This document shows positions 12,436 through 24,115 of a stretch of 64,000 bases of DNA, piece by piece. The DNA comes from a virus. Each line of letters opens with the position of its first letter. The first letter of the stretch is position 1. Made by a program: the position numbers and the translations under genes. The DNA is taken from positions 91,227 to 155,226 of the IMG/VR virus record IMGVR_UViG_3300036772_000367; one strand, given 5' to 3'. The notes under the pieces were generated by a model that saw only the letters and a list, made by a program, of their open reading frames with translations, was not told where the DNA came from and searched no databases.

Positions 12436-14078
12436 TTACTGTGGAGGACCGCGCTCGGATCACTCCGGCGCGGTCCTTGCCCAATGGTGAGTTCTTTTAT
12501 TCACCACTAGGACTTTTTGGGTTCCAGGCGGACGGAGTCGCCCAGGCATACCTGGAGACCGAACCAGGTACTGCCGGGGGTGTGGTGGTCGTCTTCGACG
12601 CCGGTTTGGGCAAGACGGTGCTGGGCATCGGTGTGGCGGCCTACCTGTTTGATGATGAGAAGATCGACCTGTGCATCGTCGTGTGTGAGCGCAACAAGAT
12701 CCGAGACTGGCACACCGAATTTGAGAACTTCTCGGCACTGAGTGTCCACACGTATTACGGCCCTGGTCGCCAGAAGCGACTGGAAAAGGTCCTAGCTCAG
12801 GGTGAAGTTCACGTATTGGTGACCACCTACGAGACCGGCCGCAACGAGCTGATGAGTCGCATGACCAACGGTCGGCGAGGCAAGGGCACGAAAATGGACG
12901 GCCCGCTGTTCGAGGCTCTGCAATTGCATACTCGGCGGAGCTTGTGGCTGTTCGACGAGGGTACCCGGCTGGGTGGTCGCGCTACTCAGTTGCATCAGTC
13001 CTACGACTACGCGCTACGAGAACTGCGCAAAGGTCCACATCACCAGCGTGCCCTATCTCTGACGGCTACGCCGTTGGAGCGGGACATGGAAAGCTCTTAC
13101 AACATGGGCCGCATCATCACGCCGACGACGATGCCAACTGTGGCTCGGTTCGAGGCCGACTACACCCGAGGAAAGGACGACTTCGGCCGGTATCAGTTCC
13201 GTCATGATCGCAAGGCTGATTTCGGTGCGATCTTCCGGCAGACCATGATCCGCAAGCGCAAGACCGACCTGGACGTCATTGACCAGTTCCCCGCGCAGGT
13301 CGAGAAGTCCATCAAGGTAGACCTCTCTCCGCACCACCGAGAGCTGTACAGCCTCGTGCGGTCGTTGCTGGATCCGCCCGAAGGGCAGCCCGATGACCGG
13401 ACGCCGGAGCAGTACGCGGCCGACGAACGAGCCTTGTTTCTCGCTCTTCGACTCACCGCCGGTCATCCGGCGGCTCATCTGCGGGCCCAGAATCGTCTCT
13501 CCCGCATCATCGCGGCGGAGATGGGGGAAACACTGCGGGCCATCAGTTCGTCCAAGAGCGACGAGCTGGTGGCCCGGCTTAGGCCGGTCATCAAGGGTCA
13601 AGGTGCGCAGGCGGTGGTGTTCACGTTCTTCGCCAACACGGTACTGCCGGACCTCGCCACCGACCTACGGCACGCTGGGTACACTGTGAGTACTTACTCG
13701 GGTGCTCAGAGTCACGACACCAACCTGGCGGCCGAGGACGAGTTCAAGGCCGGCAAGACCGAGATCTTGTTGACGTCGGACTCCGGCTGCCGTGGGCTGA
13801 ACCTGCCCAACGCCGAGTACGTGGTGGAGTATGAATCGGCCCTCACGCACGCCAAGCGCATCCAGCGGATCAACCGCATCCACCGCATCACCAGCACGAA
13901 GCAACTGGTAACCTGCTACACGATGGTGGCACTGGATACCGTCGAAGAGGGCCTCGTCAACCTTATGCTCCGGCGCAACGAAGATCACGACATCCTGGTC
14001 GGGGACGAGGAAGACGGTACCCAGTTCGTCAGCGCGGCCGAACGCCGCGTGCTGTTGGACATCGCGCGCAAGCGCTAA
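12432..14078 (+). CDS. SNF2-family (SF2) helicase/translocase
   Basis: DAGLGKT (motif I), TTYE, FDEG (II), LTATP (III), GLNL..A and QRINRIHR (V/VI). Confidence 0.88.
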   Translation: MITVEDRARITPARSLPNGEFFYSPLGLFGFQADGVAQAYLETEPGTAGGVVVVFDAGLGKTVLGIGVAAYLFDDEKIDLCIVVCERNKIRDWHTEFENFSALSVHTYYGPGRQKRLEKVLAQGEVHVLVTTYETGRNELMSRMTNGRRGKGTKMDGPLFEALQLHTRRSLWLFDEGTRLGGRATQLHQSYDYALRELRKGPHHQRALSLTATPLERDMESSYNMGRIITPTTMPTVARFEADYTRGKDDFGRYQFRHDRKADFGAIFRQTMIRKRKTDLDVIDQFPAQVEKSIKVDLSPHHRELYSLVRSLLDPPEGQPDDRTPEQYAADERALFLALRLTAGHPAAHLRAQNRLSRIIAAEMGETLRAISSSKSDELVARLRPVIKGQGAQAVVFTFFANTVLPDLATDLRHAGYTVSTYSGAQSHDTNLAAEDEFKAGKTEILLTSDSGCRGLNLPNAEYVVEYESALTHAKRIQRINRIHRITSTKQLVTCYTMVALDTVEEGLVNLMLRRNEDHDILVGDEEDGTQFVSAAERRVLLDIARKR

Positions 14079-18636: not shown

Positions 18637-18685
18637 TATCTACACGTAATAACCTGCACGGTTAATTGTAGTGCTGCGCATCAGT

Positions 18686-18948
18686 GCGAGAAATCCAGCA
18701 AGCATTTAAGCATCTACATGAGCTTCAGCGATGCCGTGTAATTCCTTTATACTATCGAGCCGTGCGGGGGACCATCCAAAACCAGCGGGCGTAGATGGTC
18801 CCCCTGTATCCCACCCGGACCCCTCCCAGTGGGGCCTGGCGGCCCTCCCCCGAACTGGGAGACTCCGAGGAGGGCCAGAGGCTCGAAGGGGAATTGAACC
18901 CCCATCTCGGCAATTCAGTTGTGTAGGTGCGGTCGATCTGGATTTCGC
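18686..18948 (-). ncRNA. Circularly permuted tRNA-like (YrlA/Y-RNA-like) RNA, domain 2
   Basis: Minus strand: TGCCG, T-arm GGGGGTTCAATTCCCCT, TCGAGCC, then hairpins, then GGCTCGA, TA, D-arm GTATAAAGGAATTAC, A, CGGCA. Closed by the long stems GCGAAATCCAG/CTGGATTTCTCGC and GCACCTACA/TGTAGATGC. Confidence 0.75.
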
Positions 18949-18963
18949 AGCGGGTTTCAGCTT

Positions 18964-19151
18964 GGGGCAAGAACTTGAGTCTGATGAGAAACGGTGCCTC
19001 TGCCAATTGGGCTACCGGAGCGTTGGGGAGAAGAGAACGCGTGCACGTTCTCTTCTCCGATCCCTGACTAGAGGGTAGAGCTCCGGGAGGGATTCGAACC
19101 CTCACTGTCCCGTTGTTCTCTGAGCCTCAGCTTTACCTTGAGCTTATGCCC
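18964..19151 (-). ncRNA. Circularly permuted tRNA-like (YrlA/Y-RNA-like) RNA, domain 1
   Basis: Minus strand: AACGG, T-arm GAGGGTTCGAATCCCTC, CCGGAGC, then hairpins, then GCTCCGG, TAGCCCAATTGGCAGAGGC, A, CCGTT. The ends can pair (GGGCATAAG/CTTGCCC). Confidence 0.8.
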
Positions 19152-19183
19152 ACCCGACCTCAAGGAGGTCGGGAGTCTGTGTG

Positions 19184-19954
19184 TTACCGGAGGTCGGTCA
19201 ACGGGTCGAACAGGTAGCCGAAGATCCTGCGGCCGAGGGTACGCTCCTGCTCCACGACGAGAGTATTGCCCTCGGAGCGAGCGGCTTTGACCGCGCGACG
19301 CAGGGTGTCGATGCGCTGGATCAACTCCACCTTCACCGAAGCGCGGATGGCGCCGGACGTCTTCACCGTCGCCCAGTAGCCGACGATCACGTCCTCGTAG
19401 AACATCTCGACCTGCGCCGGGTGCTTGTCGGTGGCCGGAGCCTTCTCGTGGTTGCGCGGGACCTTCTTGGTGCGGGTGGTTTCCGTGGGCACCGTCGCGA
19501 AGGCCACGGCGTCGTTGTTGTAGGACCACGTCTCGGCCGGGTCCAAGGTGGGCACCAGGCTGACCACCTTGCGCAGGTCGGTGAGCTGCTTCTCCAAGAA
19601 GATCAGGTAGGTCACCGGCACGTCGACCAGAATCGCGTCCGGCTGGCCGTCCAGCTTGACCGTGGCGACGGCACTGGTGTTGGCCTTCACCGAGGTGAAC
19701 TCCAGGTTCAACAGGTCCGCCAGGCTCTCCTGGAGGCCGTCGAGCAGCTCCGGTACGCGAAGCTGGACCTGGGTCTGCTCGGCCGGCAGCTTGTCGCCCT
19801 CGTCGTCCTTGGGCTTGTAGGTGCGCTGGATGCCGGCCATACGGCTGGTCTGAGTGCTGTTGAAGGTGTGCAGGACGCCTTCCAGCGACTTCTTGGCGCG
19901 GTTCTTGGCGTCGGGCAGTACGGCGAGGATCTGGCTGAGGCGAGTGGTCGCCAC
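19184..19954 (-). CDS. Conserved actinobacterial hypothetical protein, ncRNA-associated
   Basis: LSQILAV...GIQRTYKPKDDEGDKLP...VPVTYLIFLEKQL...APATDKHPAQV matches a conserved hypothetical family I recall from Streptomyces (possibly DUF7873; unverified). Strong codon bias and GGAGG RBS. Confidence 0.8.
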   Translation of the reverse strand: MATTRLSQILAVLPDAKNRAKKSLEGVLHTFNSTQTSRMAGIQRTYKPKDDEGDKLPAEQTQVQLRVPELLDGLQESLADLLNLEFTSVKANTSAVATVKLDGQPDAILVDVPVTYLIFLEKQLTDLRKVVSLVPTLDPAETWSYNNDAVAFATVPTETTRTKKVPRNHEKAPATDKHPAQVEMFYEDVIVGYWATVKTSGAIRASVKVELIQRIDTLRRAVKAARSEGNTLVVEQERTLGRRIFGYLFDPLTDLR

Positions 19955-20324
19955 GTAGTGCCTCCGGGGTCCTGTGAGCTGAGCTTGAGGTAGTGCCGCT
20001 TCGCGTTCAGTGTCGTCCAGCGGCGGGTACGGACGGAAGTTAACAGGATCCCCACGTCTTCGTCAACTCCGTTCACTCAGTGTGATGTTGACCAAGGGGA
20101 GGTTGACAGACCAGGTGGCGACCACTATCACGCGTGTCCGGGCGCATTGTTTTGTGTGTCGACGATCGATTTGACATCGTCATTACCATTGAGGGTGGAG
20201 TTGGGTGGGTACGATACAGTCCATCCCGATATCCAGGATTTGACATGGTGGATAGGATCGGTTCTGGCTTCTGTTCTCCAACAAGCTCGCTCATATCCGC
20301 TCGCGAAATACATAAGGGCAACTC

Positions 20325-20772: not shown

Positions 20773-21372
20773 ATGCCCCATCAGGTCAAGACCCTCGTCG
20801 GGAATGTGACTCTACCGTCCGACGATGAGGGCCCGCCGATTTCCGTCCAGGCCGCGCAACAGACCATCACGTTGACGGACGCGCAGTATGCGAAGATCCC
20901 GCCCGCCGCTTTCGCCAGCATGTCGTTCTACCAGGAACTGACGCCCGACCAGATCTCTAACGCCAACGCGCCGTACCAGGGCCTGTACTACTCCCTCACC
21001 GGCACGCACAGCGCCTACCTCCAGGACCTGGGGGCGACTGCCGGCGGCAGTATTCTGGTCACGGCTCAGGGCACGCACGTCGCTGCGATGGGTGCTCTGA
21101 CCTCGTCGGCCCCAGCGGCCGTGACGTCCAGTCAGAACGCCACGACCATCGCGGTGACGCCCGCCAACGCGTCCTACACCCAGGCTGACCAGACCACGAT
21201 CGCCAACCTGGCGAACGCCCTGAAGATCAGCTACAACGCCGCGCAGGTCGACATCGCAGCCCTGCGCACCACGTTGGCCGCAGTGCAGACCGACTTGGCG
21301 ACACTGCGCACGTTGGTGAACACTGAGCTGGCCGCCCTCCAGATCACAGGTGGTCCGCAGGCAGCGAGCTGA
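20773..21372 (+). CDS. Hypothetical, possibly structural (Ala/Thr-rich, C-terminal coiled coil)
   Basis: AGGAG RBS, strong codon bias, followed by a hairpin. Confidence 0.65.
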   Translation: MPHQVKTLVGNVTLPSDDEGPPISVQAAQQTITLTDAQYAKIPPAAFASMSFYQELTPDQISNANAPYQGLYYSLTGTHSAYLQDLGATAGGSILVTAQGTHVAAMGALTSSAPAAVTSSQNATTIAVTPANASYTQADQTTIANLANALKISYNAAQVDIAALRTTLAAVQTDLATLRTLVNTELAALQITGGPQAAS

Positions 21373-21385
21373 CCTGTAGAAGCAC

Positions 21386-21421
21386 CTCGACCCCGCACCT
21401 CCTCCAGGGTGCGGGGTCGAG
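21386..21421. terminator. Probable bidirectional terminator hairpin
   Basis: 14-bp stem CTCGACCCCGCACC/GGTGCGGGGTCGAG, between the convergent gene and the array. Confidence 0.7.
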
Positions 21422-21462: not shown

Positions 21463-22464
21463 GGAACACCCATCGATGGCTTGGCGAATGAATCACCCCA
21501 ATGAAACACTCTGGATCGCGGTGTGTGGAATACCCATATAAGATGTCGCGAACGGAACACTCCAGATAGTGGCGAGAAGTCGTCGGGCGTGGAACACCCG
21601 TAACTGCCAACACGCCAAGGAGGAACACCCTCAAATCGGCGCGTACCTGTGCTATGGAACATCCCCGTAGAACAAAAGACCCGCTCGGCTACCGCTGTCG
21701 GAACACCCCGTGTACGTGGGACAGATAGGTGGACCGACGATCTACGCCGAGGCCGGGAGGGAACACCCTCAGGAATCAAGGTCATCGCCCTGGGACGGGA
21801 GGGAACACCGGACCCTGCTACATCGGCAGCGGCAAGTGGAACACACAGGCAGTGGTGAGGAACGTCGGGGGAACACCCTGTTCGGATTGCTTCCCCCGTA
21901 GGAATACTCTCACAGGTACCGGTAGACGTGCCGAGAACACCCTGTACGGCATGATCGACTGATCGTCGCGGAACAAACCCTCAGATCTTTCGGATGACCA
22001 GGTAGCCCAGAACACTCTCGTGAGAACACTCTTGTACAGCGGGAGTTATACAAGTTCGCTGGAGCAGCCTCGCATACACGGGACAGATCTGGAGCCGCGC
22101 GGGAGGGGAGAACACCCCTGTGTACGTGGGATAGACCTTACGTGTGTCGGCGTAAGCCCGTACAGCAGAAGAACACCCTCGCGTACACAGGAAAGACGGC
22201 CCGCCGTCGCTGTCCGCCTTGAGTGGAACAACCCTGAGTACGTGGGACAGACGGACCCTTCTTGCCGAGCCACAGTCTGTCACTCGGAACACTTCTGCGT
22301 ACGTGGGACAGACCGCTCGAAGCGATCCTTGAATGCCTGACGAGCCGGAATACCCCTGTGTACGTGGGCAGACCTTGGCGGTATTCGCGGCCCGGAACAC
22401 ACCCGCGTACGCGAGACAGACGGCGGCCCTGTAACCACGGATGGATGAGCCAACGGAACATCCC
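21463..22464 (-). CRISPR. Degenerate type I-E-derived CRISPR array (~25 units; 8 near-full repeats, ~17 truncated to 9 nt)
   Basis: Full 27-28-nt repeats (+ strand consensus GGAACACCCCTGTGTACGTGGGACAGAC) at 21700, 22061, 22109, 22170, 22225, 22286, 22347 and 22394, with five exact 33-nt spacers. Short RGAACACYC units at 21463, 21503, 21527, 21554, 21591, 21622, 21656, 21760, 21802, 21838, 21870, 21901, 21934, 21970, 22009, 22023 and 22455. Confidence 0.85.
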
Positions 22465-22499
22465 GTCAGGGCACCGATTTCCCGTGTCCATATCACTAT

Positions 22500-22640
22500 G
22501 TAGATATAGGGGTGTGTCAGGAATTACTTCCTGGCGGTGGCCATCTGACGATGGTCTTCTCGTTTCACCGAGGACTGCTCACCATTGCTGGTGAGACTGA
22601 CATTCTCTCCACGAGCGTTTAATGTCTCCCCTGCTCCAGA
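22500..22640 (-). ncRNA. Putative TnpB omega-RNA (reRNA) overlapping the tnpB 3' end
   Basis: TnpB omega-RNAs are known to overlap the gene's 3' end. Hairpins GACCATC..GATGGCC and CAGGAA-GTAA-TTCCTG are present. Boundaries are approximate. Confidence 0.5.
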
Positions 22641-23966
22641 GGCGACAGATCGATCAGGGGCCCATTCCACCAGATTTCTGGCGGCATTCACGTCCCGATT
22701 GAGGACGAGACCGCAATGATCACAAACATATACTCTGTCCTGGAGGTTCAGCGTGGCTTTAACTGAACCGCATCGAGAACATACTTTACTGGAAGGAAAA
22801 AATCTGTCTACCACGGTCAGGGCAGATCCGTACCACTGGGTCTTGTAGTCCAGTTGGCGGCGGAACTCACCGAACGCGGCATCCAGAATCGAGCGCGAAA
22901 GACCTGATTTCGCTCGAACATTCTTGCCGGGCTTCTCGACGGTGCCTCGGGCTGAGGCTGTCATGCCGAGTACGTTCAGATCTTCGATGGCCACGCGCTC
23001 GTACTGCGTAGCCAAGTTCTTGGTCAGCCCGTGCAGGAACGATGCTCGTTGCTCGGCGACCTGGTGGTGAATGCGGCCGACCCGAACTGCCGCACGATGA
23101 CGTCGTGCAGAGCCCCGTTCGGTCCGACTCAGTCGCCGCTGTGCTGTGCGCAGTCGTGCGGCAGCAGCGCGGACGAACCGAGGATTGTTGATCAGGGTGC
23201 CGTCCGAGTAGGCGGCCAGGTGCAACAAGCCCACATCGACACCGACGGCACCACGGACACGCTGGGCACGCGTGGTGGGCCGGAGAACGTGCTCTGCCGG
23301 CTCCTTCACCAACACGGCCGCGTACCACTGCGAAGCGCCCCGAGATAGCGCCACGGACTGAATCCGGGCACCCCTACTCAGGGCACGCACCAGACGCTTC
23401 GCCGAGGAGTGCAAGCGAAGCGACCCGAGTCGGGGAACGAGTAGGTGCCGGTATCCATCCGGGCGGATGGTAGGCGACTTGACATCGTGGTAGATCCGGA
23501 ATGAGTCGCGCGAGCGACCCTTCTTCTTGAACTTCGGGTAGCCCATCTTCCGGCCTTTGCGTTTGCCGGTGAGGGAATTCATCCAGTTCTTGAAGGCAGC
23601 ATCGGCATCGGAGAAGGCCGAGGAGAAGGTGTAGGAGGACACGGTGCGCCACCAGGGGCTGGCACCGTCCTCGCCGGTCTTCTCGTCGCCTCGGATCTTG
23701 ATCCACGCACTCTTCATCGTGAAGGCCGTCGGGATCTTGATCGACACCTGCTTGCGGGCGACCTGCTCGTCTAGGCCCTCGTCCACCAGCGCCTGGACCT
23801 GGTCACGCCAGGTCTGATGCACGCCGATCTTCACCGCCAGGGCGTGATTGAATGCCCATCGAGCGGTGCCGGCGTGCTGTGCCAACGCGGACAGCTGGTT
23901 CTGGTTGGGGTCCAGGTTGAAGCGGTACGCGCGGAGGATCGTCGCCGACTCATCGGACTCGGTCAT
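22524..23966 (-). CDS. tnpB: RNA-guided endonuclease TnpB (IS200/IS605/IS607 OrfB family), no tnpA nearby
   Basis: N-terminal HTH (RAYRFNLDPN...AGTARWAFN), RuvC-I GVDVG, RuvC-II IEDL, Zn finger CSRC/CDHC, RuvC-III RDVNAARN. AAGGAGG RBS before ATG 23966. Confidence 0.93.
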   Translation of the reverse strand: MTESDESATILRAYRFNLDPNQNQLSALAQHAGTARWAFNHALAVKIGVHQTWRDQVQALVDEGLDEQVARKQVSIKIPTAFTMKSAWIKIRGDEKTGEDGASPWWRTVSSYTFSSAFSDADAAFKNWMNSLTGKRKGRKMGYPKFKKKGRSRDSFRIYHDVKSPTIRPDGYRHLLVPRLGSLRLHSSAKRLVRALSRGARIQSVALSRGASQWYAAVLVKEPAEHVLRPTTRAQRVRGAVGVDVGLLHLAAYSDGTLINNPRFVRAAAARLRTAQRRLSRTERGSARRHRAAVRVGRIHHQVAEQRASFLHGLTKNLATQYERVAIEDLNVLGMTASARGTVEKPGKNVRAKSGLSRSILDAAFGEFRRQLDYKTQWYGSALTVVDRFFPSSKVCSRCGSVKATLNLQDRVYVCDHCGLVLNRDVNAARNLVEWAPDRSVASGAGETLNARGENVSLTSNGEQSSVKREDHRQMATARK

Positions 23967-24115
23967 CTCACGCACCTCCTTCAGTCGCTGGAACCGGTAA
24001 CACGTAATCTACGCATGTCTTCCGCAGAAGTCAAACTACTACGGAGGTAGTTTTCTCTTCCCTCGGAGGTCACTGGGCTGCTACACTTCCTAAAGACGCC
24101 AACCGCACCGGAGGA

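Follow-up and report, generated by a model that had tools for sequence, protein, structure and literature searches.

The 64-kb stretch analysed here (64,000 nucleotides, hereafter the window) is the final part of a 155,226-bp IMG/VR virus record rated complete by CheckV, and carries a CRISPR-like array in which most repeats have been cut to nine bases. A gene for a predicted Cas12n-like nuclease (22524–23975) is followed immediately, on its own strand, by a decayed type I-E-style array, and the compacted block forms the distal end of that array. We judge it reasonably probable that the shortened units are used as the minimal guide array of a phage Cas12n-type system, a reading for which we infer transcription, loading, selection and targets from sequence. 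The anatomy of the array, the family placement of the nuclease, two RNA pairings supported by covariation and the recurrence of compaction in two other phage contigs are well supported. A Cas12n-type array cut to 9-nt repeats appears to be new, no description having been found in the literature searched.

The compacted array and its genomic setting

A single sequencing run contained the stretch, a soil metagenome that is its probable source. The backbone resembles that of a large actinophage; it encodes two helicases, one SNF2 and one DinG-like, and a 1,887-aa protein matching a PHROG family of minor tail proteins. The nuclease gene adjoins the DinG-like helicase on one side and the array on the other, with no transposase as neighbour, and the genome holds a single copy of the nuclease gene and a single array. 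At its far end the array meets a converging 199-aa gene (20773–21372), none of whose relatives was accompanied by a nuclease or array. A DUF7873 gene (19184–19954, minus strand, within window positions 18685–20066) is kept beside the locus in a related phage, L002 (comparison loci are cited by such numbers). Outside the window, at 73,500–74,000 of the genome (C1), a whole-genome repeat count located a cluster of short repeated 9-mers spaced 20–80 nt apart. The array and its far boundary comprise the following features.

21376–21420, no strand assigned: GC-rich hairpin, a candidate bidirectional terminator judging by its sequence, common to the array end and the converging 199-aa gene
21463–22061, minus strand: distal compacted block of 16 mini-units, each a 9-nt handle GGGUGUUCC with 5–33 nt of unique sequence; one full repeat at 21700–21726
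22062–22454, minus strand: proximal array; seven full but decayed repeats (sense GUCUGUCCCACGUACACAGGGGUGUUCC), 20–33-nt spacers, period mostly 61
22455–22475, minus strand: first unit, shortened, read as GUGCCCUGACGGGAUGUUCC, about 45 nt after the anti-repeat

A consensus terminator scan made no call on the GC-rich hairpin at 21376–21420. The first unit could act in cis in the manner of an omega-RNA end.

Against an expectation of 2.4, the window contains 16 copies of the motif RGAACACYC; 12 of the copies fall within 21463–22178, all on the plus strand. With up to one mismatch to GGAACACCC allowed, the whole 155-kb genome gave 60 matches, 18 of them within 21463–22455. Anchoring on the motif defined 25 units, eight full repeats and 17 mini-units. 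The full repeats (~28–29 nt) lie at 21700, 22062, 22109, 22170, 22225, 22286, 22347 and 22394; the 17th mini-unit sits at 22455 beside the gene and the other 16 within 21463–22060, in agreement with an earlier sequence-only reading that had counted about 16 distal units keeping only RGAACACYC. Each mini-unit retains only GGAACACCC (GGGUGUUCC when read as transcript), and its information is limited to nine columns, GGGTGTTCC in transcript sense. Mini-units carry 1.30 bit per column in an 11-column handle window, compared with 0.16 in the former 5' part of the repeat and 0.21 in the spacers. Handle conservation begins at repeat position −10, and the base after the handle (−1) is free.

Periods in transcript order are 61, 47, 61, 61, 55, 61, 47, 39, 14, 39, 36 and 33, continuing with 31, 32, 36, 42, 60, 44, 34, 31, 37, 27, 24 and 40 nt. 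Mini-unit periods range from 14 to 44 nt against the ancestral 61, the shortening that the sequence-only reading had described, and the largest distance between handles is no more than 61 nt. Several mini-units retain a few additional repeat bases, as in ..GTACA-GGGTGTTC (RNA ..GUACA-GGGUGUUC). Since these extra bases end at variable points, the mini-units are deletion derivatives of full units that lost the 5' half of the repeat and the end of the preceding spacer. The earlier account, in which units had lost the 5' part of the repeat and some spacer sequence while keeping the repeat 3' end and the spacer 5' part, holds on this minus-strand reading, and the full repeat at 21700 that it took as the ancestral form is present with its 33-nt spacer. 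Twelve of 15 mini-unit spacers are at least 22 nt long, enough for a 20-nt guide; three units leave less than 20 nt (5, 15 and 18 nt).

Decay extends into the full copies. The proximal full repeats are only 74–89% alike, and the ancestral CCCCGCG/CGCGGGG stem, intact in the relative L003, is broken by transitions in most of them and absent from the mini-units. The type I-E array format (28–29-nt repeat, 32–33-nt spacer, 61-nt period) applies to the proximal repeats and to the full copy at 21700, and is otherwise absent from the 21463–22060 block. TRF reported nothing in the array region and a direct-repeat finder returned the full copies only, which supports the prediction that standard CRISPR finders would miss the block. 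Such arrays are invisible to finders of that kind, and phage-borne guide sets may consequently be under-counted.

The nuclease gene and its scaffold RNA

The gene beside the array has the following assignment.

22524–23975, minus strand: Cas12n-like (TnpB-derived) RNA-guided nuclease gene, 480–483 aa, assigned by Pfam, solved relatives and motifs

Pfam domains in the protein are HTH_OrfB_IS605, OrfB_IS605 and Cas12f1-like_TNB. Its best solved relative in the PDB is RdCas12n (9J09/9UDI; E 3e-94, 320 bits), followed among other solved structures by ISDra2 TnpB (162 bits) and LaTranC (70 bits). The RuvC D/E/D catalytic residues and CxxC zinc-finger motifs align with those of RdCas12n. Identity to a 505-aa homologue from Actinomadura craniellae (AcCas12n locus / source species) is 54%, and IS607-annotated Streptomyces TnpBs score about equal to that homologue. 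As in Cas12n, the protein is a TnpB-like single effector within 400–700 aa carrying the RuvC D-E-D triad and a zinc finger; the array is adjacent, a Pfam search for Cas1 indicated that the adaptation module is absent, and a tracrRNA-like scaffold overlaps the 3' end of the ORF. These characters mark the gene as Cas12n-like (type V-N / V-U4), by its sequence, rather than a plain transposon TnpB. Protein, scaffold and locus arrangement together place the system, whose nuclease activity is predicted, among the Cas12n kind.

Type I machinery was searched for across the whole genome. No Pfam match to Cas1, Cas6e or Cas7e was obtained, with uncertain sensitivity for Cas6e and Cas7e, whose controls gave a match in just one genome out of 14. 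A Cas6e stem combined with type I-E cas genes, the signature of a type I-E system, was not found in the genome.

The last ~175 nt before the array were aligned across 13 loci and folded with RNAalifold, which yielded the following elements.

22506–22650, minus strand: tracrRNA-like scaffold, partly within the 3' end of the gene (RNAalifold, 13 loci)
22624–22646, minus strand: 5' hairpin of the scaffold (RNAalifold, 13 loci)
22635–22637, minus strand: GGA triplet of the 5' hairpin loop, forming the pseudoknot with UCC of the handle
22611–22615 with 22559–22563, minus strand: long-range helix (RNAalifold, 13 loci)
22570–22607 and 22541–22554, minus strand: two further hairpins (RNAalifold, 13 loci)
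22516–22535, minus strand: GNRA hairpin containing the stop codon (RNAalifold, 13 loci)
22509–22515, minus strand: anti-repeat ACACCCC, pairing with GGGGUGU of the repeat/handle

The fold comprises five helices with 33 predicted pairs, 25 of which show compensatory changes. In L002 and L004 the ORF stops ~60–70 nt earlier (at L002 7384–7447 and L004 3890–3960) and the scaffold, including the GNRA hairpin, is still conserved, so the constraint lies on the RNA and the protein tail is dispensable. Rfam held no family matching the array or scaffold. A promoter-like site lies within the nuclease gene (window 22783–22810, minus strand), ~140 nt upstream of the scaffold 5' hairpin, and could drive the tracrRNA and array apart from the mRNA.

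Two pairings connect the scaffold to the repeat. The loop triplet G-N-N covaries with repeat positions −4 to −2 in 12 of 13 loci, taking six forms (GGA:UCC, GAA:UUC, GGC:GCC, GAC:GUC, GGU:ACC and GAU:AUC), and the A. craniellae locus obeys the same rule. The anti-repeat begins zero to two bases past the stop-codon GNRA hairpin, and 13 of 14 loci have, at the equivalent position, a cognate helix of at least six Watson-Crick pairs with repeat positions −10 to −5. Examples are ACAUCCCC with GGGGAUGU in L003 and CAGCCC with GGGCUG in L007; L137 and L138 carry compensatory variants of the helix (UAC:GUA versus UGC:GCA). Within the array studied here the pseudoknot can form in 24 of 25 units. An anti-repeat helix of at least five contiguous pairs is available in 12 of 25, the other 13 falling short mostly by a single mismatch.

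The nine retained bases coincide with the predicted scaffold-pairing segments, six to seven of them facing the anti-repeat and three the loop. A free base at −1 fits this tracrRNA-pairing reading of the handle. In type I-E systems the palindromic repeat stem serves Cas6e, and the part of the repeat deleted here is the hairpin needed only by that enzyme. The gene, scaffold and array form one module on the minus strand. Structural work on RdCas12n describes a comparable arrangement: its crRNA has 20 repeat-derived nucleotides and a 20-nt guide, with positions −4 to −2 pairing with −168 to −170 (PMC12216341). In the structure only the lower part of stem 5 and the pseudoknot are ordered within the repeat portion, the upper part of stem 5 being disordered, and a shortened guide RNA whose stem 5 had been altered remained functional (PMC12216341). 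This architecture of anti-repeat helix plus pseudoknot matches the nine conserved bases. The suggestion that the units act as short TnpB-type guides is favoured in a narrower form, the nuclease being a Cas12n-like neighbour whose tracrRNA and pseudoknot would engage the 9 nt.

An improbable alternative casts the units as RNA anti-CRISPR decoys, many copies of a type I-E crRNA 5' handle that would soak up Cas5e/Cas7e or build aberrant Cascade complexes in the host. The conserved bases do overlap the 8-nt handle that a type I-E crRNA carries in the E. coli system, and repeat-derived RNA anti-CRISPRs are known from phages. The conservation however starts at −10, two bases upstream of that handle, and leaves −1 free. 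Known Racr RNAs reportedly retain the Cas6-binding hairpin; the mini-units have this hairpin deleted and hence do not mimic a whole repeat in the Racr manner. The units are also always found downstream of a Cas12n-like gene whose RNA pairs with them. The Cas5/Cas7-sequestering function that had been put forward from the sequence gained nothing specific in its favour.

Less probable still are sites acting at the DNA level, whether iterons, an array bound by a partition or replication protein, or mobile IS607 guides for transposon homing. Short direct repeats on one strand at an irregular 24–44-bp spacing would suit such sites, and the gene does belong to the TnpB superfamily. The motif however visibly derives from a CRISPR repeat, intermediates linking the full units with the truncated ones, and it covaries across loci with two RNA segments of the gene's scaffold. 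There is no transposase beside the gene and only one gene copy in the genome, and a homing omega-RNA has one guide compared with 25 here. A TnpA gene beside tnpB, defined element ends and a single right-end guide, as in IS607/IS605 transposons, were not found together. Two candidates were rejected in this connection: a plain IS607 element with omega-RNA, for its absent transposase and many guides, and the DNA-binding iteron named in the sequence-only reading, for the covariation of the motif with its RNA partners.

Relatives, targets and the question of selection or decay

The association of gene and array was examined in relatives. Among the seven closest homologues fetched with their DNA, five have an array directly downstream on the gene strand (L002, L003, L012/L013, L136 and L137); the other two are L004, with mini-units only, and L014/L015, with a single omega-RNA-like guide. 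L138 also has an array downstream of the nuclease gene, as do three of seven IMG/VR relatives (L007–L009) and most of ~40 homologues from actinobacteria, among them the A. craniellae locus (29-nt repeat, 61-nt period). Bacterial arrays stay regular at 61 nt, and compaction was not seen among the ~40 loci. In the single-guide relatives L005 and L014 the same anti-repeat pairing is made in cis.

Compaction recurs in two other phage contigs, with different handles that each match their own scaffold. L003, whose protein is 79% identical and whose synteny is the same as in the window, has clean proximal repeats and distal periods of 22–40 nt. L004 (protein 66% identical) contains only mini-units, GGAUGGUUC, at 25–48 nt, and its scaffold matches its own handle through the anti-repeat CCAUCCC and loop GAA. 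L002 (protein 74% identical), which with L003 makes up the two closest homologues, has a related phage backbone in opposite orientation and, like L003, a type I-E-format array downstream.

Several relatives show incomplete or unusual arrays. L136 has a one-spacer array at 1590–1850 followed directly by two apparent tRNA genes. Three degenerate units ending GGAG(C/T)GAT(C/T), with a period of ~62 nt, lie at L006 5030–5190 behind an otherwise single-guide-like homologue, and may represent an array being born or dying. The Logan contigs L012, L013, L137, L138 and L139 all run out at the first repeat, within ~60–135 nt of the end of the nuclease gene. Such arrays apparently interrupt assembly, leaving array-bearing relatives under-sampled. 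A scan of IMG/VR with the nuclease protein alone found no relatives, and a 17-nt scaffold pattern had no match in IMG/VR. The same pattern gave at least 120 metagenome matches; the 80 loci fetched lacked a homologue, which marks these as chance matches.

Target searches, for which the sequence-only reading had called, produced no convincing protospacer among GenBank phages, the phage's own genome, the fetched loci or IMG/VR seeds. Blastn of the whole array against 50,697 GenBank phages gave chance-level matches only, and the spacers matched neither the phage's own genome nor any fetched locus. Three exact 19-nt spacer seeds were searched in IMG/VR, two without a match. The third, from the spacer after the handle at 21760, matched 19 nt exactly at L197 1100–1118 (IMGVR_UViG_3300043313_001186). 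This match extends poorly, its flank is not the AAN expected of a Cas12n PAM and ~0.3–1 such matches are expected by chance, and it is probably a chance match. No spacer is shared with the L003 array. One spacer of L007 gave an imperfect match to tail genes of Streptomyces phage Ponzi (31/34, E 0.06) with AGG beside its handle-proximal end, which fits the transcript orientation used. The minus-strand orientation of the array was taken from the gene, the scaffold and this flank. Choosing the strand by G-U pairs in the repeat stem was tried and dropped, as transitions run in both directions.

The pattern of deletions bears on whether the handles were selected. A deletion removing a handle would leave a gap of more than 61 nt and none is present. 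The probability that 18 deletions would all spare the 9-nt handle is ~1e-6, assuming uniform placement and one deletion per 61-nt unit, an assumption that a mechanistic bias such as palindrome slippage would break. Under this assumption random decay is indeed the poor fit that had been supposed from the sequence. The eight full repeats behave differently, with 0.22 mismatches per site in the handle versus 0.26 in the rest of the repeat (p = 0.7). Since the handle shows no advantage over the remaining repeat bases, the whole array may be drifting.

A collapsed stump would account for this drift. The array would then be unused and its changes neutral, with handles surviving through deletion bias (e.g. 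palindrome slippage) or because little time has elapsed. We regard this as unlikely. Proximal full repeats that are merely 74–89% alike with broken stems, handles in them that are kept no better than other repeat bases, an imperfect anti-repeat helix in about half of the units and the lack of a convincing protospacer are all compatible with it. Yet neither the nuclease gene nor any scaffold helix is damaged, 18 deletions spare the handle (P ~1e-6) without any gap beyond 61 nt, and the flanking repeat bases have fallen to 0.16 bit while the handle stands at 1.30 bit per column. The same outcome was reached with other handle sequences in L003 and L004, and a phage is unlikely to retain ~600 nt of useless DNA.

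The preferred reading, a used guide array, suggests the following course. The block would be the old distal end of a CRISPR array belonging to a phage-borne Cas12n-type (type V-N, formerly V-U4) system. For its crRNA the terminal 3' bases of the repeat would suffice, roughly six for the anti-repeat ACACCC(C) and the three after them (UCC) for the loop GGA. With no Cas6e, Cascade or Cas1 in the phage, nothing would preserve the 5' hairpin of the repeat or the last third of the 33-nt spacer. Unit-by-unit deletions may have removed these hairpins and spacer ends, whereas those reaching into the 9-nt handle or the first 15–30 nt of guide were apparently purged by selection. What remained would be minimal handle-plus-guide units, fit for loading into the phage nuclease together with its tracrRNA. 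The mini-units would be out of reach of processing by a host type I-E system, which would make the guides private to the phage.

Significance and comparison with known systems

We put at about even chances the broader proposal that one lineage of Cas12n-type systems in actinophages took over a type I-E array and made it hairpin-less, with 9-nt repeats and ~30–40 nt per unit, so that it became multiplex and unreadable to host CRISPR. If the mini-units are used, the natural minimum crRNA handle for a Cas12n-type nuclease would be nine bases, a 6-bp helix plus a 3-bp pseudoknot, and would be a candidate design for compact multiplex guide arrays serving Cas12n editors. Use of the units would also show the fate of an array shared by type I-E and type V once severed from its type I partner, the Cas6e part being lost and the tracrRNA part staying. 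Even as a relic, the block would indicate the repeat bases that are important to Cas12n.

The closest known systems are the Cas12n enzymes RdCas12n and AcCas12n, which likewise have a small TnpB-like RuvC nuclease, a tracrRNA over the 3' end of the ORF and no adaptation genes. Cas12n is defined further by a 5'-AAN PAM and by dsDNA cleavage under RNA guidance. In both cases the crRNA uses only the 3' part of the repeat through stem 5 and a 3-bp pseudoknot, as predicted here. The A. craniellae locus further shares the stop-codon GNRA hairpin, the anti-repeat, the pseudoknot covariation and a 61-nt type I-E-format array. C2c9 (Cas12n) has been reported to lack an adaptation module and to use a PAM common to co-occurring type I systems (10.1101/2024.04.09.587696). 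The present system differs in residing on a 155-kb phage, in having an array mostly of 9-nt repeats at 24–44-nt periods and in missing a regular leader; the bacterial Cas12n members examined, unlike this phage, kept regular arrays.

Type V-K transposons offer the nearest functional precedent for the mini-units. Their truncated repeat-spacer unit keeps only the tracrRNA-pairing part, with a 17-bp guide (10.1101/2021.02.06.429022). They too are type V systems that have a tracrRNA and took their array format from type I, and their truncated unit can no longer serve the type I partner, being reserved for the type V effector. There a transposon carries one dedicated unit targeting its attachment site, whereas here a nuclease system has ~17 serial units. 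IS607/IS605 TnpB (ISDra2 TnpB, 8H1J) and TranC intermediates (LaTranC, 9JFO) belong to the same superfamily and also have the scaffold over the 3' end of the gene, but the present locus has no transposase or element ends, has many guides and encodes a protein nearer to RdCas12n.

Orphan phage type I-E mini-arrays and RNA anti-CRISPRs resemble the locus in carrying type I-E-format repeats on an actinophage without cas genes. One such array was found in Saccharomonospora phage PIS 136 (L141, JX006077.1, ~12,790–13,060), where four clean type I-E-format repeats, GTCCGCCCCGCGTATGCGGGGATGAACC, lie unannotated. It has a typical leader junction and no TnpB/Cas12n gene is annotated beside it. In contrast, the array described here is tied by covarying pairing to an effector of its own and has lost the hairpin bound by type I-E proteins.
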